NCBI GenBank assembly: GCA_000182565.2
Contig: KQ257469.1
Length of the DNA stretch: 64,000 bases
Source: Spizellomyces punctatus DAOM BR117
Lineage: Eukaryota
Reading direction: 5' to 3' (one strand)
Part shown: positions 33,327 through 64,000 of the stretch, in pieces
Position numbering within the stretch: position 1 is the stretch's first letter
How the letters are laid out: each line of letters opens with the position of its first letter
The notes under the pieces: generated by a model
What the model was told of the DNA's origin: nothing
What the model saw: only the letters and a program-made list of their open reading frames with translations
Databases searched by the model: none
Made by a program: the position numbers and the translations under genes

Positions 33327-34052
33327 CCGGTCAAGCAGTGTCTGGCATATCAACATAGTCCTGCAGGATAGGAAATTATGTATGTAGTATCTCATGGCAT
33401 TCCTTTGTTCTTGCTACAAGTTCTGTATCGTACATCCTCAACAAATAGCAAACTTTATGTCATCAGTGCTCAATGTCCTTTGTCCAAGCCTTGTTTCACT
33501 CTCATGAGAATTCAACAGCACTCTTGCGACCCTTGCCCATCAGGAGTTGTTTGGGTAGAGCCGACACCCAATGGGGAATGTTGACTATAACCATTCCCAG
33601 CGGGAGTTTCAATCGCCCGTAGTAGGTATCTCGTCTTTTAGAATGTATTCTTACGGCATTCAATCACAGTGTTCTAAGCGACTGAGATACCTCTGCGGAC
33701 AACAGGAGCTGATAGTGTTGCAGACGAAGATGTGCCAGGTTTGACGACTGCTATTTATCAATATTTACTACTCAAGGTTTTGCTATCAAACAACTTGGGT
33801 TTTGATCTCCAGTGAGGCTGATACTAGCGATACTATCAAATAATCCTTCAGAATAATGTTACTTACATGGTGATTCCCAATTTACAAGCAGATGGCAGAT
33901 GAAAGTCGCTGCGAGATGCGAGCGGCTGGTATATTAATAAAATGTGCCACCCGTGCCACATGGCTCAGTTTTCGACAATGTTATACTTCTTTTTGACAAA
34001 GAAACTCGGGCTTGCACAAGTTCCATTTCTGCTGGAACAGAATACTTGAACC

Positions 34053-35368
34053 ATGACCAGAGTAACCAAAATGGCGCGGAAGACGCACGAAGAGGCGTCC
34101 GGGTTTGTGGTGACACCTCTTTTGCCAAAGTCCAACTCGACAGGGGAGCAGCCGGATAGTACTAAGAAGCGGAAACGTAAGGAGGAAGTCGTGGCTGCTC
34201 CTACAGAGGCGAAAAAACACAAGCACGCCGAAAAGTCTTCCAAGGAGGAAAAGAAAAAGCGAAAGGAAAAAAAATCTCCGGAGGGAACGAGTGACGGTCC
34301 GAAGGTAGCGGATAGTACAGAAGTCAGCGAAAAGACGCCCAAGCCGAATAAGAAGAGAAAAGGAGAGGACAATAGCCCTGCGGTTGGTGAGAGACAGACA
34401 GACAACACTCCAGCTGCTCCATCTACAGGTGGATCCGCTCAAAAGAAAAAGAAGATGCGCCATCGATCAAAAGCTGAGTCGACACAGGGTGCCGGTACAT
34501 CTGGGGGAAAGCGGGGTAAGGGAAAAGTAGCCGAGGATGGTCTATCAAAGTATGGTTAGTATCCGTACATACCTATGAGGCCGACCGAGAGCAGCCGACT
34601 AAATGGTGGGTGGTTTTTAGAGAGGGAAGCCCTCAGAAGACGAACAAGGAGAGAAGCAATGAGGGAGAAGAAAATGGTATGCCAGTAACGATCTTTATTC
34701 TTATGAAGACACCCTGATATCGATTGCTTTCAAGGTCTGCTACCTTTGCAGAAGCATGGGGCACTCCATAAAATTCTGTCCGAAAGCTACGGAACAAGAT
34801 AAACAAGCCGTATCCGGAATTTGTTACAAGTGCGGTTCTACTGCCCACAAATCATCAGAATGCAAAAAAATGGTGGATCCTAGTAAGTGTCCTTATACAA
34901 TAGCTAATTTACTCATACAATTACACACCAGGACAATTTAATCATGTTTGGCGGTCACCTTATTTTAGAGAACCCATATCCTTTTGCGCACTGTTTTGTT
35001 TGCGATCAGCAAGGCCACTTGGCAAGTTTATGCCCAAAAAATGAACGGGGTCTGTATCCGAACGGAGGCGGTTGCAAATACTGTGGTTCAGTTAGGCACT
35101 TGGCGAGGGACTGTAAGCCTGCGTTGCAGGGTACGTAAATGGTTGTTGTGCATGGTACATGAATCACAGGCTTAACTCAATCTCTGTCCGGGTATCGTTT
35201 CTAGAAGCTGGGATTACCACGCTAGGCACCATCGATCTCAAGCAAGGTGGTGACGATGACGATGTGTTCGTAGCGCTACATAAGATGCAAGGTGACAAAG
35301 AAAAGGCGGCTGAGACTACAAAGCCAGGTACTAGGAAGTCTTCAAAGAAAAAGGTCGTAAAATTCTAG
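34053..35368 (+). CDS. ZCCHC9: CCHC zinc-knuckle protein, ZCCHC9-like
   Basis: Lys-rich N-terminus. Four knuckles: CLPCRSMGHSIKFC, CYKCGSTAHKSSEC, CFVCDQQGHLASLC and CKYCGSVRHLARDC, with the linker GLYPNGGG. Ends KKKVVKF*. Confidence 0.8.
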
Positions 35369-35477
35369 GTTAGTGGTGCCGGTATGGGAGAGGAGCTTGC
35401 TGAGCTGTTGAAGTTAGTGATCGATTTAATCATGCATTTACGGGTAGTTTGAGGTAGCTTTTGACTGATAATGATAA

Positions 35478-35558
35478 TTTATGAGAGTTGCATAGTGCGG
35501 AGCCGATGGGTATTGGCGGCACCAGGGATTGAACCGCGCGACAACCGGTTCGGAAAAC
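35478..35558 (-). ncRNA. Fanzor omegaRNA: about 66-nt scaffold plus about 15-nt flank-derived guide
   Basis: Begins 21 nt after the Fanzor stop. Scaffold GTTTTCCGAACCGGTTGTCGCGCGGTTCAATCCCTGGTGCCGCCAATACCCATCGGCTCCGCACTA (35558-35493), then flank TGCAACTCTCATAAA. Self-complementary, and closely resembles the SpuFz1 omegaRNA as I recall it. Exact ends are inferred. Confidence 0.8.
35495..35517. repeat. Terminal inverted repeat, omegaRNA end
   Basis: GTGCGGAGCCGATGGGTATTGGC, the exact reverse complement of 37608-37630. The symmetry extends to 27 bp when the flanking CATA/TATG is included. Confidence 0.97.
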
Positions 35559-35579
35559 CTAATCTAACCAATCTACGTT

Positions 35580-37472
35580 CTACGCTACGGCTGGAACACT
35601 CCTCCTGCTGAACACTTCTGGTCTACAGTGCCCATCCAACATTGATCTCACAATCATTAGCATGTTGCAGGTTGACAGCGTATCTCGATTCCAGTAGCGC
35701 ATTCCCGATGTCCAGGCTTGCTGCAAACAGTTAGGGTTGGTACAACCCAGCAATCCGTGGACTTTTTCAACCTTGCCTTCTCGTCGTCGATAAGGTCTTG
35801 AATGAGCTCGTGTTTTGAAGCCTTTTTTGAGGAAGTCGTTGGATGAGGCCAAACAGCGAGGGCAAACAGATGAGGTCTTGTACTCGTCGAGAAGGAAGCA
35901 GTTGATCCTGTTCCGCTTAAAGAGGGTGCGCCAACCTTTCGTCTTTGATGAGATCTGAAATCTCGCAGTTCGACCGGCGTCGCTCCAATCACCCATCACA
36001 ATGGTGAAGTTTTCACCGTACTTGTTGTGCAAGTTGGATATGAGGTTCGATTCGCTCTTCTGACGGTTTATAGATGCATGCCATTTCCATCGAGTATGAG
36101 CAGGGTGGGCATAGAATTCCTTGCGACGATCCCAATCAGCGCGGCGAACGAGAAGGTAACGCATGAAGTCTATGAGGTTCATCGTCTTGTGGCTTGAAAT
36201 ACGTGATTCTATGAGGTCAATACCGCCGGCTTTCATTGCTTCCCGCTCCCTTGCAAATCGCCGGCTGCCTGTCTCCATGGCTCGCTGGTTTGCGGTGTAG
36301 CGAAACGTTGTACCATTGCTGTCTTGGCAGTAGAGAAGATCGCGCTTGTTTGGGTCAATAACGACAAAGTTCTCTTGACAAGCAGATAAGTTGTTTTCCA
36401 CATAAAGCGCTTTAACCTCTGCCTCCATCGTGTTTGCTGACTTTTTCCCTCCGCTGCGCTTTCCATACTTGTCTGCTTCTGGGTGCTTTAAGTATACAGA
36501 CACCGAGGTTCCGTCCGTCGTGATCGAGCCTTCAAACCACATTCTACGACGAGATCTAAAAGCCTTGTTCTGCAGATTACAGACGCGCAACCATAAATCG
36601 ACCTTCTCTACGGCTTCTGCTTCTTGGCGGGTGATGCAGAGGATGTGGGCGTAGAGAATGACCGTGTCGATGCGAATATGGGACTGAATCAGAGACCGAC
36701 GAAGAGGGATTGCACTGAACCGACGGAAGCCATGTCGTTCATACAGCCCAGAGAGTTTGCAGTATGCAGGAAAGAAAGCGAGAGGGTCTACAGCAACCGA
36801 ATATGCGAGCTGCTGGTCAGAAAGGGGAATGAAGGACCACATCTCTTCTAGAAGTTCACTCTCTTTAGCAGTCAAGTCATCAAGTGACTCGGGCACAATA
36901 TCAAAAAGGAAAATTGACTTCAAGTAGCGTAGCCGAGCAAAGAAAGCTTTCCGCGCTTCACTCTTTGGAGGCCCTTTCCGTCCCTTCACGTCGAGCCGCA
37001 GATTGATATACCGAAGGAGCATCTGCATGAAATGCTCTTGAACGTTGACTTTCAGGTTCGTCATCATACTCACTGTCAGGTAATTGACTGATTGCTGCTC
37101 GCCTCGTAGATTTGGGTGAACAAAGCCGACGATTTGGCAGTACCGTTGAACATATGGCAGCAAACAATCCCGCCATGCCTTCTTTGCTTCCTTTCTTGGA
37201 TGCCAAGCCTCCCCCTTGTTGAGAAGGTAGAGAATCGCTTCGATGGTCTCCTCATTCACGGTGAAGGATGGTGCAGATAGGGTGTAGAATTTGAGAGCGT
37301 GGGAAGCGTGGGAAGCGAGTTGATGGATGATGGCGATGTAATCTAGAAGACGCTGCCGGTAGGTCTCATTAGGCAAGAAAGCCTTTGCAAAGGACGTCTT
37401 GTTGCAGGTATGTAAGGTGGGTTTGTCGAGTTTTTCGAGCCTTTCGAGCTTTTGCTTTTTCTTTGGCGGCAT
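35580..37472 (-). CDS. Fz1: Fanzor1 RNA-guided DNA endonuclease (eukaryotic TnpB/Cas12 relative), SpuFz1-like, 630 aa, intronless
   Basis: NLS PPKKKQK. SITTDGTSVSV motif. RuvC-I VVIDPN (D373). MGDWS motif. Displaced RuvC-II LLDEYKTS (E530). Zn finger CPRC..CTNPNC (C537, C540, C577, C582). RuvC-III YWNRD (D597). Confidence 0.97.
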   Translation of the reverse strand: MPPKKKQKLERLEKLDKPTLHTCNKTSFAKAFLPNETYRQRLLDYIAIIHQLASHASHALKFYTLSAPSFTVNEETIEAILYLLNKGEAWHPRKEAKKAWRDCLLPYVQRYCQIVGFVHPNLRGEQQSVNYLTVSMMTNLKVNVQEHFMQMLLRYINLRLDVKGRKGPPKSEARKAFFARLRYLKSIFLFDIVPESLDDLTAKESELLEEMWSFIPLSDQQLAYSVAVDPLAFFPAYCKLSGLYERHGFRRFSAIPLRRSLIQSHIRIDTVILYAHILCITRQEAEAVEKVDLWLRVCNLQNKAFRSRRRMWFEGSITTDGTSVSVYLKHPEADKYGKRSGGKKSANTMEAEVKALYVENNLSACQENFVVIDPNKRDLLYCQDSNGTTFRYTANQRAMETGSRRFAREREAMKAGGIDLIESRISSHKTMNLIDFMRYLLVRRADWDRRKEFYAHPAHTRWKWHASINRQKSESNLISNLHNKYGENFTIVMGDWSDAGRTARFQISSKTKGWRTLFKRNRINCFLLDEYKTSSVCPRCLASSNDFLKKGFKTRAHSRPYRRREGKVEKVHGLLGCTNPNCLQQAWTSGMRYWNRDTLSTCNMLMIVRSMLDGHCRPEVFSRRSVPAVA

Positions 37473-37519
37473 GATGATATCTGAAAAAGATGAAAGCCTG
37501 GGAAAATGGGCACGACAAC

Positions 37520-37526
37520 TTATATA
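37520..37526 (-). promoter_or_regulatory. TATA box inside the element, upstream of Fanzor
   Basis: TATATAA on the minus strand, 47 bp upstream of the ATG at 37472. Confidence 0.55.
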
Positions 37527-37607
37527 GGATTTTTTGGATCAAACCATAGTTCATGAGTCTACATCGAGTAAAATTATGATTAAATTGGTTGGAATCTATG
37601 TACTAGT

Positions 37608-37630
37608 GCCAATACCCATCGGCTCCGCAC
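37608..37630. repeat. Terminal inverted repeat, promoter end
   Basis: GCCAATACCCATCGGCTCCGCAC followed by TATG, i.e. CATA immediately 5' of the element on the minus strand. Confidence 0.97.
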
Positions 37631-37973
37631 TATGTATCTACACATCGTGGTGATTTTCCAAGTTATCTGCATGCGCTGCCATTGGAGTCTTCTTGCTAGA
37701 TATTTGATGTTCAAGTAACTACGTCTGACGCTAGTGTCCTATATGTTAGTGCCCTAATGAGCTGAGATTCAACAGAAGAATATTGCCACAATTTGATATA
37801 ATGGGAAAGAATGGCCCGAACATATATTCTCGCTATTGATTCTGCCTTTTACTCGCAAAGACCAAGTTGACAGAGAAATTAGATATCTACATGCACGCAT
37901 ATCTGCAAAAAATATACTACAATAATGCAAACATCGGAGTTTCCAAATCATGAAATATTCGCCGTTTATATCC

Positions 37974-39603
37974 TCAACCTTGCCGTATCTTCTTCATTCG
38001 ATCTGTCTCGGTCCCGCCATCGCGTCGACGTTTAGACCATTGTGGATTGTAAGAAACCTGATATTTGGCGCCCACGGCAAAGTCCTCAATTACCGGACCG
38101 CTATAATCGTCTTGTCCAGGCGATAAAAAATCCTCAAGCGTATATTGTTCTACAATGCGGACTTTGAGTTGCGATGTTCGCCGCCAAGGCAGTATAGTCC
38201 ATACCTTCTGGTTCCTCCGCGACAAGTACAGGAGAGGTGGGGTTTAATGATACGTTACGTGAAGAGTCCATACTGAAAAATAAGCGATTACGTCAACTCC
38301 AAAGTGCCAATGATTATGACTCTAATTACGGGACCACTCACCCGTCGTTTATGAAAGCAACCTCCCCAAGCAAGGGCTCATCTCCCTGACTTTGCGTTAG
38401 GTCAATGCCTTCTACCATAACCATCCCTCCGGGTGACGACTGCTTGCTGAGAAGCGATCGTCGTTTGTCTGGCAGCGGTGTCGTATGTTGCCATTTTTTG
38501 TAAGGCCGCGTGACAACCTTATCGTACACCCCGGGTTTGCCGTTCGGATACGTTGATTTAGCCCCTTCTGCATAACGTCCTTCGCCCAGTCCTGATGTCT
38601 GCCTTTGCTGCCGCGGGCTCACCGGCGACGCGGTTGATGAAGCATCGCCTGTTCTCTTTGATGGAGTAACCTCCGGTCTTCGACCTTCAGCAGACTGTTC
38701 GGTGATCGGCTCCGACTGTGGTAGCGTTAAAGGCGATGAAGGGAGACTAGGATTTTCCGCGCTTTGTACAGAGGGAGCGAGGTGTTTTAATGGCCTTCGT
38801 AAAGTTTTTGGTGTGATATCAACCAAAACGCTTGTCGTTCGAGAAGCAGCTATTCGGCGGGGTGACGAGGATGTTCCCGTAGCCCTACCTAATATCGAAC
38901 TTGTTGGGTTCGTTTGTTTTGTACGCAGCGCACCGGAGCTATCAGCAAGGGTAACAGTTTCTTCTGAATTCAACGGTGAAGACGCTGAACGGACGAATAG
39001 TAGACAACATGAGCCTTCTGGAGCCGAAAGCGTTCATGTCCCAGACCGAGCACACCTGTAGCGTCTAGGATATTGACAAGCCCGTCTTCCTGCGACCAAG
39101 TTTCTACCCCTGACGGCACCGCTTCGACGGACACAATCTTGGAATGCGTACCCTGAGCTGAACTCTGTATCGACCCTGGCTTTGGACTCTTTTTGACAGC
39201 AAGGCTGACGAAATGTTGGGCAGCTGTTGTTAGCTGCCCTTTTCCTGTCAGACTTTCAAATCTTTCAACTGCCTCTTTGACCGTTACAGAAACCGTCGGA
39301 GGAGCCACGTCCTGTGTCGCTTCGTCTTCCGACCACACTTCAGCTCCGTCGGGTTCTTTTTCGTCTACTTCTTCCCCATCATTCGGAAATGTCTGACTCT
39401 CCGCAGCTGCAAAAAGGAGACCAGGATATCTTTAGATTCATGCTCGCGTGTTCTCGTGCCAGTCAGTTGCCGTCGGGCCGGCTCAGATCGCCGCAGTTAC
39501 CTCTAGCGTCGGTTACAATGCTATTCGAAGTTTCTTGCTCCGTTTCCTCATCTTCAAAGCCTCCTAGACCAGAGAGTCTAAGCACACGCTTTAGCAATGA
39601 CAT
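37974..39603 (-). CDS. Hypothetical Ser/Thr/Pro-rich, largely disordered protein (about 4 exons)
   Basis: MSLLKRVLRLSGLGGFEDEE from ATG 39603, spliced into ORFs 38970-39338, 38338-38973 and 37974-38225. Confidence 0.6.
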
Positions 39604-55791: not shown

Positions 55792-58700
55792 ATGCAGGAG
55801 GAGAAGAGGGTCTTCCCTTTGGAAGTTGAAGGGGAAGACAATGCCGATGAAAATCTGCCATACATTAGACTGCGATATGCAGCAAATACTTTGGCCTTTG
55901 ATTTCGTATGTGACACCTCCCTTTGAAAACACATAACAAATCTCTTCATTTTTATTCATCGTAGACCTATGCAAATTGCTCGCAATTTGAGCCTTCATGG
56001 AGATATCTGTTGGCGTACTTGGAATCATACGAACCTAGCTTGCGGTCCTTCGCATTGCAGTGCATCGGCATGGCGTCAAAGTCCATATCACGGACCTTGA
56101 TATCATCAGAACTACGGCAGAAGCTTGTGTCGATTTTGATCAAAATGGTGGCTGGAGACGAGGTACTTAGAATGCTGAAATATTTTCTCGGAGTATCGTA
56201 GCTTCTTGTTGCTTTTGTTCTGTCATGTAGCTAATGTGAAAGCGTGGCCCTAACAGGTCTGGCAGAATCGATGCTTAGCTGCGCGAATTCTGGGAGAATC
56301 GGTATCTGTAATGCTATCACACGACTTTCCTGCAAAGTTACGGAAGTTTGCTTTTCAAACCGTCCTCACACAGTTATCACGGGCTTTCCCCGCCGACTTA
56401 GATAGTGCCCTAAAACAAGATCCGACCATACTGGACAATTCGCACTATGTTCCACCACACCTATTTCGATGTAGGATCCATTTCTTACATGCCGCTGCCT
56501 ATTTTTTTGAATGCCCAGAGGCCTTGACCCCGGACGTCCTCGGATATGTGGATCGACTCATATCGTGCCTCCTCGGTCCGAAGGTTCACCATTATCTGCA
56601 GGCCGCGGCAATACATGCCATACATGCTCATTTGCCTGTGACGAATCGAAATAGAATCCGGGTGGAGAAACTTTTCCGAAAGCCGATAGTTGCGCTTTCT
56701 CAGGATTTTTTAACACCGGATGGTACAGAACCGGAGACTGGACAGCCACCGAAACAAGCGTTGCACCCCATCATTACAAAGGAGCTTGCCCTCTTCTGGG
56801 CAGTGTGGTATCAGAGACCAAAGGACTCGCAACTTGTCGCCATCGTACCAAATCCTGAACAGATGAGTCGAATGTTTGAGGGATATGCATTCCGAAGATG
56901 GCAGTGGTTGGTGGCGGAGAACTTTACTATTGCACAAGATTCTCAACCACATGCGCTAGACGTAGAGGCCAAACGGAACGCCTTGCGTAAAACTATAGAC
57001 TGGCCCCAAAGCAGAGCGGTGTCAGCGATGCTCAACGTCAAACTTTTTGCACCTTTAAAAACAATCACTGTAACAGATCCAGGTGGGTGAGGCCCTCAGG
57101 TAGCATTTGAATTAGCATCACGATCTTCAGGGGCGTTCCATAAGCTAATCTCTTGGTCAAGCCAGCGACAGCCCTCAGTCGATGGATAATGTCGAAGAGC
57201 CAGATGAGACGTTTGACATACCAGATCCTACGATGCTGACGTTCAGCATGAACCCACCGATTCTCCTTTTCAATCGTTATCCGTTCCAAAAGGACATATT
57301 TCTACAAAATAAGTCAGTTTCACACGACACCGCATTCCGCTTGCAGGTTGGACCTGCGCGGTATTTTCAAGCCTGGCCGACGATTGGAATACTCCCAAAA
57401 GGGGAATCCACAGTTGTTACCGTGCGATTTACCCCTTGCCCCCATATTGTACGGAAGAATCCGGAAGTTGCGGGCTTCATTCGCATCCGTACTGCTGACG
57501 GTTTACCGATGGAAAGGTAGGAACAAAGCTGCTTTTCCACCATCAGATTACCTAGCCACTCAACACCTCAATGTCAGGATCTCGTTGCGCGCGTATAATA
57601 TGCCGGCTGTCAAGGTTTACCCGCAGATACTCGACTTTGGGATGTGCCCTAAAGGGGACCACCGTGTGATGAATTTCACCATTGCCAACCTCCTGCCAAT
57701 CGACTGTCCAATAGTCATGCTGACGACTCCTTCCGCCAGCAGCTCGATGTTTCAGATATCACCCACCCAGACGGTCTTAATGCCGAAGGAGAGGAAATTA
57801 TTCCAGATAAAATTTTGCCCCACAATGGAAGGAGTTCTCCTGGACCAGTTGCTGTTAGTAGCTTTTGGGGGGGAAGTGTACCGGATACGTTTGGACGCAG
57901 TATGCGGTGAAGCATTGCATATATTGGATACCAAGCTGGATTTCGGCCCAACAGACATCTACTATAATGCTGTCGTCAAACGAGTGACCCTCAAAAACCG
58001 CGACAAGAAGCCACTTCCTGTCAGTTTTGAAGCAAGCACAGATGAGCTGAAGTTGAATAAGGATGTTCCCATCGTACTTGCACCCTACGAAGAAAAGCGA
58101 GTTGAGGTCGAATTTTTGTCTTCGATCACCGGGTCTCGCCAAGAATCGCTAACGTTTCAGGCTCCACATACACTTCCACATCCTATCGAAATCCTGGCAT
58201 TCTCTGGGCCGGCGATTTGGGTACCGGTGATGGAAAACATTATTTTTCCTTCAACTCCAACCTTTCAAGGCGTGTGTGTGCAGATCCCTTTGGTTAACCT
58301 AACCAATGCACTGTCACAATGCCTCATCACAGTCCCCGTTAGTTCGCCCTTCAACTTGCGGCTTGTTGATCCTGAGTTTGCCAATCGGAAACCGGCGAGC
58401 GGTGGCATACTCATTGAAGCGAAATCATACGAAGGACCGGACTGCATAGGGATGTCACTTACCATTGGGGCTCGTCTGACGGCCGTGATTGAGGTGGAGT
58501 TTCTGAGCACAACATGGGGATCATTCAAAACTCCTCTGTCTATTAGTATGGTGAAGCCGAGAAAGTGGCTAGTCACAACAATGATGCTTAATGCGATTGC
58601 TGTCAATGAACTATACCTTTCTCGTGAGAAGCCAACCGATTTCCTGCGACGGTTTCTTGCAAATCCCTCTGCAGAACCCGCGACCGGTCTTCTAGTCAAA

Positions 58701-61700
58701 CGAAACACGGATGCACGTTCAGATTCAGGCACGGCAACCAAAACATCGGAAATTTTTGAACTCGACCCTCCTCTTCAGACGGTATTTGGTGCACATTTAA
58801 GTGGGCGATTTGAAGATGTTTGCGAGTTTGTGACCATAACGAACATCACCAGTGTCACCCAAAGATATCACATTGTTCTATCAGAGCATTTTTATACTGA
58901 TATGCCGCTTGATGGGGAATTAGAAGGGATGGCGAGCATCGAAATTTTGTTGCGCCTTGACACAGCGTTCTTCGATGAAATTGCTGCCCCAGAAGCCCTT
59001 CACCACCTTGTCATTGGATCAATCACGATTTTTGATGAGAATGAAAAGAAGCTTGGGATGGTCAGTAGTGCATTGCATGGCATTATGGGCGATCTAGTAT
59101 CGTTCGAATGTAGAGAGTCAGTAGATACCATCAAATATCCCTCCCTAAAGGTCATGGAGAAGTTCACGAGAAGGTTCCTACTACGTAATAGAGCCCCCTT
59201 TGAAGTCGTATGGGACGGCCGCTTGATATCTGTTGGGCAGCAGGGCGTTGGACTTCAGGCAGACGGTCTGCCTATGATTGTTCCAACCAGCTCGAACGCC
59301 GCGGAATGGTGTCCCTTCAGTTTGTCAGTGCCCCGTGTCAGTTTAAAACCTTTTGAGTTTTACACCGTTGATATAACTTTCCAAGCTACTAGCTCTGGGG
59401 AGTATCGCGCGAAGCTTTTTATGGAATATGTGGATCCTGTAACTCATGTTGTAAATGCGGAACATCTGCGAGGGAAAACAAAGCGTAGTTTGCGCCAGCT
59501 CCTGTTTTATTGCTCCGTTGGAAATCGCGATTTGGCTCACAATCCGGAGATTTTGACGCATGGAGACACACCCATTGGCGAAAGCCAGTCATGTTCCTTG
59601 ACCTTGATCAACAATCAACCTTTAAACATGCAATTAGCACTTGGTGCGACATCGCCATTTAGGCTTCTGGATACGTGGGCGTCGCTGGGCAAGCAATCAA
59701 AGTGGGAACTTCCGGTCTTTTTCGAGCCGGTAAAAAGCAAGGCGTACAGCGACCTGATTACACTGTGCTTCGGAGGAGTAACACGTACTCTTTCTGTCCT
59801 TGGAACTGGCGGGAGGTCAGGACTGGAATCAAATCTAGCTCAACCCATACGAACGGATTATTTGGAACCTATGGTAAATGACGACGGGGATGAGCAACCG
59901 ATCATGCCAAGCGCATCAAATATCATTCGATTCGGATTTGTTGAGCTCGGCCACCCGAAAAACAAAATCTTTGTCCTGACCAATACTGGCACTTTTGACT
60001 ACGTCGTGAAGAATATTACGTTAAGCGAAGATCAGTGCCTAACCTGGAAATTCTTGGAAGACAGCGGGGGTGATAACAGTTCATCTGCACAGTCTGAGCC
60101 TTGGAGTGCTAATTTTGGATCTGAAAAGTTGGATGATATTGAAAATGACTGGGATGAAATAGATTATCGTGCACGAGAAACCGGCGGCACACCAAGTTCA
60201 AGGGCAGGGTTTGACCGTGGGTCGATCACTGCATCGTCTATAACGGCAGCCCCGCGTCGGCGTCGGTACAAGTCTATTTCACATTCAATGGTGCCTACGG
60301 GTTCTTCCAAGTTATTTCCTTTCCGCTTGCCTCCTTATCAGAAATGTGGTATTCTCCTCACGTTTGCAGGATTTGAAAAGGTATATAGTTGTCTGCCGTT
60401 TGTATCCAATACAATATCTGAGCGAAGTCGCATTAGGGTGAGCGTAACATTTCAATCAAAGTTGAAGTCGAGCGAAGCAGTGGCGAACCAGAAACATACA
60501 TGTTCTGGGTATCTGGAAATCTCCAACCAGCGCTTCAATTATGGGAGAAAAAGATTGAATATGGTGTCCGCGCCGTCCATGTTCGACATGCAAGTATTTT
60601 TCCTTCCCTTAACCTCCCCGATTTGTTATTAACGTAGGTATCTTATCACCACAGAAAGCAGAGATAAAGTTTACGAACACAGGTACAGTCCCACTACCAT
60701 GGAGCCTGACACAGGAAAGCACCAAATACATAGCAATAAAGAAGTTTGACCCGGCCCCACTTCCGAAGGATCTGAACAGCATACCGTCTCCCATATCATA
60801 TTTCCCCAACAATGGAAAGCTGCTACCAGGCTGCACCCAATCAGTTGACATTGCTTTTACCCCAAGTCTCGCTCAATATGAAGTCTTCAGCTACTTTACC
60901 CTCCGAACTGAGGATTTCGCAGAGGCTCCTATTATCGTACATGGTGTCGGTGCATCGTCTCGTCTCACGATAGACGTAGAAGAACTGGACTTCGGGGTAA
61001 TAAGAGTCGGAACAAATAAGGCCTTCAAGCTTAGCTTGCGAAATAAGGGTATTCTGCCCTTGAAGTATTTTGTAGAATGTTCCAACATCCAGTTTGCAGC
61101 GGATCCAGAGCAAGGACTATTGGATGGAGATGGACGGGTGGATATAACGGTCAAATTTACGCCCAAAACTGTTGGACAGCTCACCGCCTTTTTGCGCATC
61201 TTACCTCACTCTGCCGAAGGATATAATGTGGAACCTCTCATGGTTTCACTACGCGGAATGGGAAGCTATCCTGAACTTGTTGTGCTTACCAGGACAGTTG
61301 ATTTTGGCACGGCTTTGTTCATGACGCGAAACGTGCAACCAGTGAAAGTGCAAAACAAAGGGGCAGCCGAAGCTCATATCGTCTTTAGCTGCCACCATCC
61401 TGGTATCAGCTTAGACGGTGGAGAGAAAGGGGTGACAGTGGGTCCCCACACTGTCAAAGACATCAATATAGTCTATACCCCCCAAGTGGTTGAGGTGTTG
61501 AACGTCAAAGCATTTTTGCGGTCATCGGATAGCAGGGGCGATCATTTTATGCTGACTTTAGATGGATCTGTGGGAGTGCCCAAATTGACCTTCGAGCCTA
61601 CGGACATTTTAGAGAATCTGGACTTTGGTGTCTGCGCCGTTAACGGCATTTACAAGAAGACATTTAAAATGGCCAACGAAGGTAACATCAGTTTACCTTA

Positions 61701-64000
61701 TGCCCTGAGTCTGGCGCACATGAAGACAGTCCAGCATGATGCCGAAGGACATGCTATGTCCAAACCCAACTCACCTCGACGTAATGTTATCAATATTGAA
61801 CCGTCATCCGGAATCTTAGCGGTGGGAGAAGTTATTGGAGTTACCATCACCTTCATTCCGGATGGTCTCGCAGAATACGAGTACAATCTCAATCTAAATT
61901 ACGAGTTCCGCACTTCGACTGCTATTGTTAAGGGAACAGGAGGCAGAGCAGTGTTGAAAATTGACTCACCACTACGACTCATCGACTTTGGGATCTGTAG
62001 ATTGCGGAGAGTCTTTAAGAAGCCTTTGACCATATCAAATACGGGAAATTTGGGCGTAGAATATCACCTGCGACCAGAACCAACTGACGGTGATTGGACT
62101 GTTTATAAGGATGAATTCAAGAGGAAGTCACAACTGAAATCCCCACAGACTGTCGATGTAAACGAGCAACCACAGGCTGATATAGTTGAAGACGCCGTCA
62201 AAACCGAGACGGAGGTGCCTGAGGAGCCATTCTGGGTCTCGCAGCTTGCTGCACTCGGCTTCACTTTAAAAAACCCCAACGGATATTGCAAACCTTACGG
62301 GAAAACGGATATCATAATTCAATACTCTCCTTCTGTAGAATCGCTTGTGGCAACACGGCTGCGAGTTTACTTTGGCGAAGAGTTTGAGGATGTCGAAATA
62401 TGCGGTCGGGCGTCCGTCCCTCGATTAACAATTTATGGCCCGTCCAACGAGTTGCTTGGGGGTGCTCCGCAAGAGATTCGAACGGTGGATCTCGGGGTCC
62501 ACCCGATCAACTCGGAACACGTTCATACGTTGCAGTTAAGAAACGATGGGCCGTTCGGGGTCGATTACCTGGTTCAGCCTATTGGTATCCGGGAATTTGA
62601 TGTGCAGCCACTTCGCGGATTTATTCTTCCTGGAATATCGAAGCCTCTTCGAGTTTACTTTCGACCCAATTCGGAAAACAAGTTCCAAACTACTATGAAG
62701 GTGCTGTGGGAGAAAGAGCCACTACGCTTGCACCTAGTGGCAAGAGGCGGCATCGGCAAACTAGAGATTGTCTACGCAGATGAGAAGGACCTGGCCATAA
62801 ACGGACTAGACTTTGGCATGGTGCCTTTCAATAGCTCAGCGGAAAAGCACTTCTTCCTGTATAACGTGGGAATGGTTGAGATCTCGATGCAGGCGGATAT
62901 CGACAATGATGAATACGCCATGTCCATCTTAGGTGATCCCACGCCGTACCATCCGCAAAAAAATGTGAAGCCCCAGTCCCCTACCAAACGTACGGTTTGG
63001 AATTGGTATTCTACGTTGCGAACGGTGATACCTCCTGGCACTGGAGTTGAGGTTGTAGCTCGCTTTATTGCGCGATCGCCCACAGTTTCGGCGGGCAATG
63101 TGCAGGTCAGATCTGAAGGCGGCTCCTTTATCGTACCAATGCGAGGGAAAGGAGGCACCATTCAAATTTCCCATAAAGGCGATCTTAACATGGGCGATAT
63201 TGCAACTAACTACACTTACTCTCGTAAAATTGTCATCGTCAATAGCGGATCTATACCATCGAGTTTGACAGCCGAGTGGCTAGTTGTAGGTCATTCAAGC
63301 GAACCATCCTCGGCGTTTATTCAACTGGCGGACAATTTCACTGCATTGGACCCACGATCTAGGTGGGCAAAACAACAACTTTGCCGGGAGCGCGGAGTTG
63401 CGGAGATTACCATGAATGCAAAGGATCGCTGGCGACTGATTGCTCTTATGATACGGAAGGCAGAAGTATTGGAAGACGATACTATCAGCGGGGATCCCCT
63501 TAGTAAACTGTGGGGATCAACCCTTGGAAAAATCCGAACCTTAATGCAGCAAACTCCAGTCGCCCAGCAACCTCCTTCGGCAGCCAATACAAGTAGCTCT
63601 CTTAACTCTCAGGTGGACAGTAGCGCTACAAATAGTGCGACCAGTGTCCAGCCAGGCCGCGCAAGCTTGACCGGGGGCCCTAGTCAGAGCGTTTTGCAAA
63701 AGAAGGGTCTTCCCGCTCACTATTCCGCTCAATTCAAGCGCCGTCAAATGTTTTTCCATCTTATCACGAACACACAGCTGACGAGCCAATCACTACCTAC
63801 GACAAGACCGTACATTAAAGTGGAGCCAGCCACATGCATTCTGCCCAGCTATGGAGAAGTCACCTTGAACGTGGAGATCAACTTGGCTACTGAAGACACA
63901 TTCTTGGCGACTCTCGTGATTCGACCAAGCGTGCTAAACACTCCTCCTCACGAAATCTCCCTCACGGCTACACCAAAGGCGGTAAATATAGTCTGTGACG
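55792..64000 (+). CDS. Giant ASH/PapD-like Ig-repeat flagellar protein (Hydin/CFAP47/CFAP65-like superfamily), runs off the window
   Basis: Helical N-terminal exons from MQEEKRVFPL (start uncertain), then many LDFG-x-N repeats (LDFGMCPK..FTIANL, LDFGPTD..TLKNR, IRFGFVEL..VLTNTG, LDFGVIRV..SLRNKG). The final exon, about 60655-64000, is absent from the ORF track, consistent with having no stop in the window. Confidence 0.85.

Follow-up and report, generated by a model that had tools for sequence, protein, structure and literature searches.

An SPu-1 copy with an intact Fanzor1 gene in Spizellomyces punctatus and the CATA-guide arrangement of its reconstructed empty site

The window analyzed here is a 64-kb stretch of DNA from the chytrid fungus Spizellomyces punctatus. 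Positions 35493-37632 of this window hold an element of 2140 bp, delimited by direct reading and a coordinate script and read as a copy of the SPu-1 transposon. The copy sits between two convergent host genes. The insertion is 125 nt downstream of a CCHC zinc-knuckle-like host gene, and a spliced RNA-derived contig with GT..AG joints spans 34019-35575. On the other side, the transcript contig of the second host gene ends 171 nt from the element. The RNA-derived contig 34019-35575 crosses the right end of the element; its strand and the RNA ends are not readable from the contig. The features of the locus are as follows, with right and left end named from the strand of the Fanzor (Fz) gene.

34019..35368, plus strand: host gene with introns and CCHC zinc-knuckle-like ORF pieces; stop codon at 35366-35368
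35478..35492, minus strand: predicted 15-nt guide, identical to the protospacer, just outside the right end; placed by position only and read from 35492 to 35478
35493..35494, no strand: TA on the right-end (omegaRNA) side; putative target-site duplication (TSD) and last two bases of the predicted omegaRNA scaffold
35493..35579, minus strand: predicted omegaRNA scaffold region, 87 nt from the Fz stop codon to the element end
35495..35517, plus strand: right-end inverted repeat (IR), perfect over 23 nt, 25 nt with TA; shortened by an internal 9-nt deletion relative to other copies
35580..37472, minus strand: intact Fanzor1 ORF of 630 aa, a SpuFz1 paralog by alignment
37473..37607, minus strand: non-coding, from the left IR to the start codon (5' UTR or promoter of Fz)
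37608..37630, minus strand: left-end IR, from repeat analysis
37631..37632, no strand: TA on the left-end side; putative TSD that supplies the last two bases of CATA
37633..37634, minus strand: TG on the plus strand, CA on the Fz strand; the two bases, reported as conserved upstream of the left IR, that complete the CATA TAM
37803..39408, minus strand: convergent host gene on the other side; transcript contig with CT..AC joints

SPu-1 is described in the available part of PMC3627910 as an element of about 2100 bp with 33-bp TIRs, putative TA TSDs, and a protein, SPu-1-1p, of 633 aa. Saito et al. report 30-nt IRs and a CA that is conserved upstream of the left IR at Fz loci and ghost loci alike, with 42 Fz and 134 ghost loci (~176 in all); TAM boxes are drawn in the published locus scheme (PMC10432273). 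The present copy agrees with this description in being a ~2.1-kb element with one Fanzor1 ORF near SpuFz1, in having TA at both ends, and in having CA upstream of its left end. On the plus strand, the junction at the lower coordinates consists of a flank ending in CA (35491-35492), TA (35493-35494), and the IR (35495-35517), and the junction at the higher coordinates consists of the IR (37608-37630), TA (37631-37632), and a flank beginning with TG (37633-34). The window contains exactly two instances of the 23-nt IR core, in inverted orientation, as against 0 in 100 shuffles. The perfect inverted repeat is 25 nt once TA is counted, and the repeat including the flanks reaches 32 nt at 94% (arms 35486-35517 and 37608-37639). 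The distance from the element end to the Fz ATG is 160 nt. A blastn search of the element against the window returned the element itself and its own IRs, with no other copy or ghost element, and a 22-mer of the IR had 0 matches in each of the viral, metagenome, and genome contig collections. This anatomy of the element is very likely to be correct.

The 630-aa ORF matches the PDB chain 8gkh_P (SpuFz1) in a phmmer search over nearly its whole length (E=0, 1215 bits, query 2-630 to chain 396-1032), and the second-best PDB match is Parasitella Fz1 with 8.3e-48. No Pfam family was found for the ORF at E up to 0.1, including OrfB_Zn_ribbon, the domain named for 8gkh, and membership in the Fanzor1, TnpB-type group is thus assigned because of the full-length match to the solved SpuFz1. 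The contacts of SpuFz1 with the TAM are reported to be R96, Q129, Q130, N133, R291, and Y345, and its metal ligands D383, N385, E541, and D606 (PMC10432273). In the alignment to 8gkh_P, all six TAM contacts are identical (R93, Q126, Q127, N130, R282, and Y336) and the metal ligands are conserved as D373, N375, E530, and D597; D373, E530, and D597 form the RuvC D-E-D and align with D383, E541, and D606 of SpuFz1. This alignment identifies the ORF as closely paralogous to SpuFz1, with all of the named TAM-reading and catalytic residues retained. The TAM of SpuFz1 is CATA, as the original prediction had stated, and DNA with 5'-CATA beside a guide match is reported to be cut (PMC10432273); CATA specificity of the paralog is predicted from the SpuFz1 residues. 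A Fanzor protein search of metagenome contigs gave 174 pattern matches, none of which was confirmed.

The omegaRNA of SpuFz1 is reported to consist of a 75-nt scaffold and a guide of 14-15 nt that lies beyond the conserved part (PMC10432273). The Fanzor1 guide-RNA scaffold includes the TSD and the TIR (PMC10711439), and according to the accessible part of PMC13565253 the 3' TSD belongs to the scaffold and the guide starts after it. The 87-nt stretch that separates the Fz stop codon from the end of the element fits the published ~75-nt scaffold followed by a 14-15-nt guide, a fit of position only. An Rfam search of 35300-37800 gave 0 matches at E up to 1. The predicted fold of the scaffold, alone or together with the guide, was no better than that of shuffles (z 0.41, 0.41, -0.33), a result that is uninformative either way. 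A tRNA-like 3' end in the scaffold was considered and rejected, as the tRNA scan gave 0 genes. Full-text searches of the literature for the IR or omegaRNA sequence returned only chance 10-mers in unrelated papers and 0 matches to a 12-mer.

The scaffold region of this copy carries a deletion. An RNA-derived contig shows that other, more highly represented copies carry ACTA and CACCC behind 35517/35518, so that 9 nt are missing here, and a second RNA-derived contig set has a loose end before 35519. The deletion in the right IR leaves the perfect IR at only 25 nt vs the published 30-33, and the copy's own guide RNA, with a 9-nt deletion in its scaffold, may be impaired. The shortened IR and scaffold are what would be expected if the copy were an inert relic, that is, a fixed and immobile insertion whose TAM-guide match is a historical trace and whose intact ORF at most serves the guides of other loci. 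The same explanation draws on the lack of a transposase. In its available text, Saito et al. report no transposase within the Spu-1 IRs genome-wide, and none is known for the element (PMC10432273); in the window, where 13 ORFs, the Fanzor ORF included, reach a length of at least 250 aa, 8 of these were scanned and no transposase was found among them. An inert relic does not agree well with an intact ORF in which all key residues are present, or with IR cores that are still perfect. Additionally, Saito et al. detected omegaRNAs from four loci (PMC10432273), of which the present locus may be one. 

An empty allele was sought in 4 of the 24 listed sequencing runs, none of which was shown to be from a different strain. 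One of these runs consists of 38-nt reads and has the same species label as the run that matches the stretch best, and the other three are RNA-derived contig sets with 0 flank differences; the best-matching run and a run of raw RNA reads belong to the remaining 20. None of the 15 listed joints skips 35495-37632 in any of the 4 runs, which are a poor and non-independent test. The result counts against the homing reading and on the side of an inert relic, an explanation that is possible but doubtful. The sole other left-end flank visible in the examined runs reads TATA and not CATA.

The empty site was reconstructed by removing the element and one TA. The join 35494|37633 made by the coordinate script yields CATATG, and on the minus strand of the rebuilt site the 15 nt 35492->35478 follow immediately after CATA. 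The same 15 nt of the occupied allele are preceded by ...CCGCACTA, of which the last four bases are ACTA. Direct reading and the script confirm the original prediction on both counts, namely that the emptied site reads CATA followed by the guide at a CATATG and that the protospacer of the occupied allele follows ACTA in place of CATA. In silico, from the coordinates, the empty site is thus composed as in a homing system, with TAM and guide match, and the occupied site is without the TAM. The 15-nt guide string has no second match in the window, and the 19-nt string of TAM and guide is unique in it. That the protospacer matches follows by construction, since the guide is itself the flank; information is carried only by the CA at the left end and the TG at the right end. 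The predicted guide starts with TG, the complement of CA at 35491-35492.

The weight of these bases can be judged from the 2802 TA dinucleotides of the window that lie outside the element. CA stands upstream of 222 of them (7.9%) and TG downstream of 197 (7.0%), and 13 (0.46%) lie within CATATG. With CA before TA at a background of 7.9%, a single locus supports the TAM match only weakly (about 1 in 13). The CATATG palindrome at this site is suggestive but n=1, with odds of about 1 in 200 overall and 1 in 14 once the CA is given. A background of this size would leave room for a nuclease that acts in trans, for which TA alone would be the insertion target, CA would be chance or a weak preference, and the real targets would lie elsewhere, in the donor sites of other transposons or in foreign DNA, reached with Fz and ghost guides. 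Targets elsewhere are raised as a possibility in the Discussion of Saito et al. (PMC10432273), and the one other copy with a TATA flank points the same way. Chance does not explain the conservation of CA upstream of the left IR across Fz and ghost loci, however, and a flank-derived guide can match only its own flank, as the single match of the 15-mer in the window also indicates. A trans-acting role is quite unlikely.

The reconstruction takes the TA to be a duplication rather than a part of the IR. This is putative: the literature calls the TSD only 'putative' (PMC3627910, as far as its available part goes), and one copy cannot decide the point. If there were no duplication, CATA would be the terminus of the element, and the true empty site would lack these bases and the TAM next to the protospacer; both ends of this copy do read CATA and then the IR core. 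The 94% identity of the repeat over 32 nt, flanks included, could be read in this way. However, Saito et al. find conservation of CA upstream of the left IR only and a variable sequence (the guides) beyond the right end (PMC10432273), and TA duplications are described as the rule in other Fanzor1 elements with similar ends (PMC3627910). The absence of a duplication is very improbable.

The favored reading is that 35493-37632 is a copy of SPu-1 (Spu-1), the non-autonomous IR DNA transposon in which Fanzor was first found, inserted at a site that its own nuclease could recognize when empty. Taken as a whole, this reading is fairly probable, and for the in vivo homing function the case could go either way. 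The element would have entered a CATATG at its TA, which was duplicated in the process. Insertion in this way would make the uninterrupted allele read CATA plus the guide match, and this allele would be the natural target of the copy's own RNP. The occupied allele would escape cutting because the transposon end (ACTA) stands before its guide match. A cut in the empty allele would be followed by homologous repair that copies the element back, as in TnpB-style restorative homing or retention. The restorative homing model, in which the 5' TSD belongs to the TAM, is given in PMC13565253, which also argues that DDE cut-and-paste excision usually leaves a break or a footprint and not a clean empty site. 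An excision footprint would destroy the juxtaposition of TAM and guide match.

That TAM and target site are coupled has been published before, both generally and for the Spu-1 family, and to this extent the coupling proposed in the original prediction stands. A choice of CATATG by the transposase is conjectural: Saito et al. report CA at the left end only and call the guides variable, and the one other visible left-end flank reads TATA. The prediction's claim that either insertion orientation gives a valid arrangement is true of this single palindromic site but does not carry over to sites in general. The interpretation is partly supported overall, with anatomy and logic that are right, and it is by inference that the element may be called 'self-protected' and 'gene-drive-like'. 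The left-only CA may not stem from the transposase, because an enzyme that inserts symmetrically at TA would be expected to make no difference between the two flanks. CA could instead be a signature of survivorship, in which only the insertions that complete CATA are restorable by Fanzor and so persist. This idea is tentative and rather unlikely, and since CATATG is a palindrome here, transposase choice and survivorship are indistinguishable at this locus.

The finding is real, ordinary, and largely in print. No new principle comes out of it, since SPu-1 itself, its TA termini, the CA, CATA as the TAM, and the idea of a TSD within the TAM are all in the literature; what the locus shows is that the homing model is free of internal contradiction in the case of SPu-1. 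The biological role of eukaryotic Fanzor is described as still open by Saito et al. (PMC10432273), and a 2026 review, in its available part, lists homing evidence for TnpB and IscB only and none for a Fanzor. A useful question raised by the locus is whether the transposase imposes the CA or whether selection by way of Fanzor accounts for it. If survivorship were true, the flank statistics of the ~176 loci would be the first genomic evidence of Fanzor homing or retention in vivo.

The copy resembles SPu-1 of S. punctatus in its length of ~2.1 kb, its single Fanzor1 ORF, and its full-length match to the SpuFz1 structure. It differs in its 630 aa vs 633 aa for SPu-1-1p and in the internal 9-nt deletion of its right IR; the 8gkh chain is longer in the aligned part and has many substitutions vs the paralog. 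The target of Tc1 has a weakly palindromic consensus around TA. Tc1/mariner-type elements that carry Fanzor1 have TA at both ends and inverted terminal repeats in common with SPu-1 (PMC3627910), but the available literature gives no mariner assignment, transposase, or common TIR for SPu-1. The TnpB-omegaRNA systems of IS200/IS605 share with SPu-1 a guide that comes from the right-end flank and a TAM motif beside the left end. Restorative homing of IS200/IS605 by TnpB-omegaRNA was reportedly described by Karvelis in 2021 and Meers in 2023. As in the site reconstructed for SPu-1, the empty site consists of TAM and target and the occupied site does not, according to PMC13565253 and 10.1101/2023.11.20.567912. 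Unlike IS200/IS605, SPu-1 has ends that are inverted repeats with a putative TA duplication absorbed into scaffold and TAM, and its mobilizing enzyme is probably not HUH.

The SPu-1 transposon copy is a 2140-bp insertion (35493-37632, read from 35200-37900) that features a perfect inverted repeat (IR) at its ends. The 23-nt IR core gave no match in 100 shuffles, and the IR grows to 25 nt once the TA next to each core is counted. The stop codon of the Fanzor ORF lies 87 nt from the end of the element, the position at which the omegaRNA is encoded in the published sister loci (Saito et al., PMC10432273). Fanzor was discovered in the SPu-1 family by Bao and Jurka, who put SPu-1 at ~2100 bp and reported TIRs of 33 bp, 'putative TA target site duplications', and 17 copies of full length (PMC3627910), and Saito et al. 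reported 42 Fz loci as well as 134 ghost loci (PMC10432273). A search of the element against the 64-kb window found no second copy or ghost, and collections of viral, metagenome, and prokaryote genome sequences contain no exact match to the IR core. The locus is a published SPu-1 feature that is real, rightly read, and already known in substance.

Features of the SPu-1 copy and equivalent residues in its protein
35495-35517 and 37608-37630, inverted pair: 23-nt IR core, exactly two occurrences in the window
35580-37472, minus strand: uninterrupted Fanzor1 ORF of 630 aa (ORF scan)
R93, Q126, Q127, N130, R282, Y336: equivalents of the TAM-reading residues (PDB alignment)
D373, N375, E530, D597: equivalents of the metal-holding residues (PDB alignment)

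Compared with all PDB chains, the 630-aa ORF is best matched over its full length by 8gkh_P, a construct of Fanzor 1 from Spizellomyces punctatus (E=0 at 1215 bits, with residues 2-630 of the query aligned to 396-1032 of the chain), and the next match is Parasitella parasitica Fanzor 1 (8.3e-48). SpuFz1 reads its TAM with R96, Q129, Q130, N133, R291, and Y345 and holds metal with D383, N385, E541, and D606 (PMC10432273); all ten residues are identical in the 8gkh_P alignment. A Pfam search of the protein returned no family, and no confirmed relative was found among metagenome contigs. Transposase is described as absent within the IRs (PMC10432273), and none was found in a domain scan of 8 of the 13 window ORFs of at least 250 aa.

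The insertion site features CA, TA, and then the IR at 35495 on the left-hand flank of the plus strand, and on the right-hand side the IR runs to 37630 and is followed by TA and TG. Removal of the element and one TA, a reconstruction from coordinates, gives CATATG. On the Fanzor strand of this empty site CATA adjoins the 15 nt running from 35492 to 35478, which is the pairing of TAM and guide match described earlier, although guide and protospacer match by construction. In the occupied allele the same 15 nt are preceded by ...CACTA, so that the four adjoining bases are ACTA and CATA is absent, as had been proposed. The SpuFz1 TAM is 5'-CATA, the omegaRNA consists of a 75-nt scaffold and a 14-15-nt variable guide, and TAM boxes are drawn in the locus scheme (PMC10432273, Extended Data Fig. 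3 legend). PMC11423790 gives CATA and TTAA for 'GtFz1 and SpuFz1 ... respectively', the opposite of Saito et al. 2023, and this looks like a word-order slip. The earlier description of the site is exact, and the claim that either insertion orientation would yield a valid TAM follows from the palindrome CATATG here; the literature reports CA at the left end only, and for this reason a palindromic target is probably not general among copies. In the window outside the element, CA lies upstream of 7.9% of 2802 TA sites, TG lies downstream of 7.0%, and CATATG accounts for 0.46% (13); statistically, the match at this single locus is thin.

Four public sequencing runs (X2, X10, X11, and X21) were compared with 33500-39600 at 80% likeness, and none of the 15 joints listed skips the element as an empty allele would, although all four are weak tests for the empty allele. 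X21 consists of 38-nt ChIP reads under the same species label as the run best covering the stretch. X2, X10, and X11 contain contigs that are spliced in the genes on either side of the element, at GT..AG or CT..AC joints, and are therefore RNA-derived; X2 is labelled probable DNA, yet it too contains them. These contigs have no differences in the flanks, an exact match that shows no strain difference. Only one of the 24 loose ends listed (87 further ones exist) lies at an element border, an X2 contig that departs from the window after 37633. Read on the Fanzor strand, it shows the left-end flank of another copy to be TATA, not CATA; TAM position -4 thus has T in place of C, one case against strict CA. 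The TATA flank is in keeping with a surplus of transitions between copies: over 35540-37580 this copy differs from the reads and contigs of other copies mostly by transitions. In X21, C>T (83 places) and G>A (81) lead, A>G and T>C each occur at 52, and every type of transversion at 13-21.

In other copies, as seen in RNA-derived contigs, nine additional bases separate 35517 from 35519. X2 has one contig with the extra bases (depth 73/116 at 35517 and 73/96 at 35518), and X11 has a loose end matching them. The right IR of this element is therefore shortened on its inner side by a 9-nt deletion, which lies in the predicted omegaRNA scaffold ~25 nt upstream of the guide, and the perfect IR is consequently 25 nt versus the published 30-33. 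With the nine bases, the right IR of the other copies would pair with this element's left end over ~33 nt, the published length. Rfam holds no matching model for the predicted omegaRNA, and RNA folding was uninformative.

The neighbourhood offers additional observations. X2 record 16 is a spliced contig of the upstream plus-strand host gene (34019-35575, four GT..AG introns removed) that extends 207 nt beyond the host stop codon, across the right IR and 83 nt inside the element. There are two explanations: the host 3' UTR now terminates within the element, antisense to the omegaRNA, or sense and antisense transcripts that overlap were fused during assembly. X21 ChIP-seq depth is ~2-12 in the near flanks (34724-35335 and 37784-38800) versus ~50-70 1 kb further out, which may simply be a promoter-associated mark, because the flanking genes are convergent. 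Two long ORFs at 57348-63999 carry HYDIN/CFAP65/Cep192-type Ig-like domains; such proteins are flagellar or centrosomal, which fits a zoospore-forming fungus.

In the proposed mechanism SPu-1 would insert at TA, and the omegaRNA would include the TA on the right in its scaffold and use the following 15 nt as guide. The Fanzor protein would read CA and the single TA of the uninterrupted site as CATA and would cut 16-21 nt into the protospacer, the published positions (PMC10432273), and the occupied site would escape because every copy ends ...CAC-TA. This mechanism is the best-supported reading, the anatomy alone being observed here. TAM and guide usage are presumed by analogy with sister copies, and we infer that empty alleles would be cut in vivo and then repaired. 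A genuine difficulty for this mechanism is noted in the 2026 review (PMC13565253): where a cut-and-paste DDE transposon has left, there is a break or a footprint instead of a clean site. The target may thus be present only in a naive allele or where repair has been precise. The interesting question is whether the CA stems from a preference of the transposase or from survival that depends on Fanzor.

The biological role of Fanzor was called unknown by Saito et al. (PMC10432273). Yoon et al. showed the TIR and TSD to belong to the Fanzor1 guide-RNA scaffold, with the guide extending ~15 nt past the TSD (PMC10711439). The 2026 review states that 'the 5' TSD is recognized as a part of the TAM', places the 3' TSD in the scaffold, treats every OMEGA system as a restorative homing endonuclease, and lists experimental homing for TnpB and IscB only (PMC13565253). 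The original synthesis is therefore correct, but what it does is apply this published model to a single locus that is itself published.
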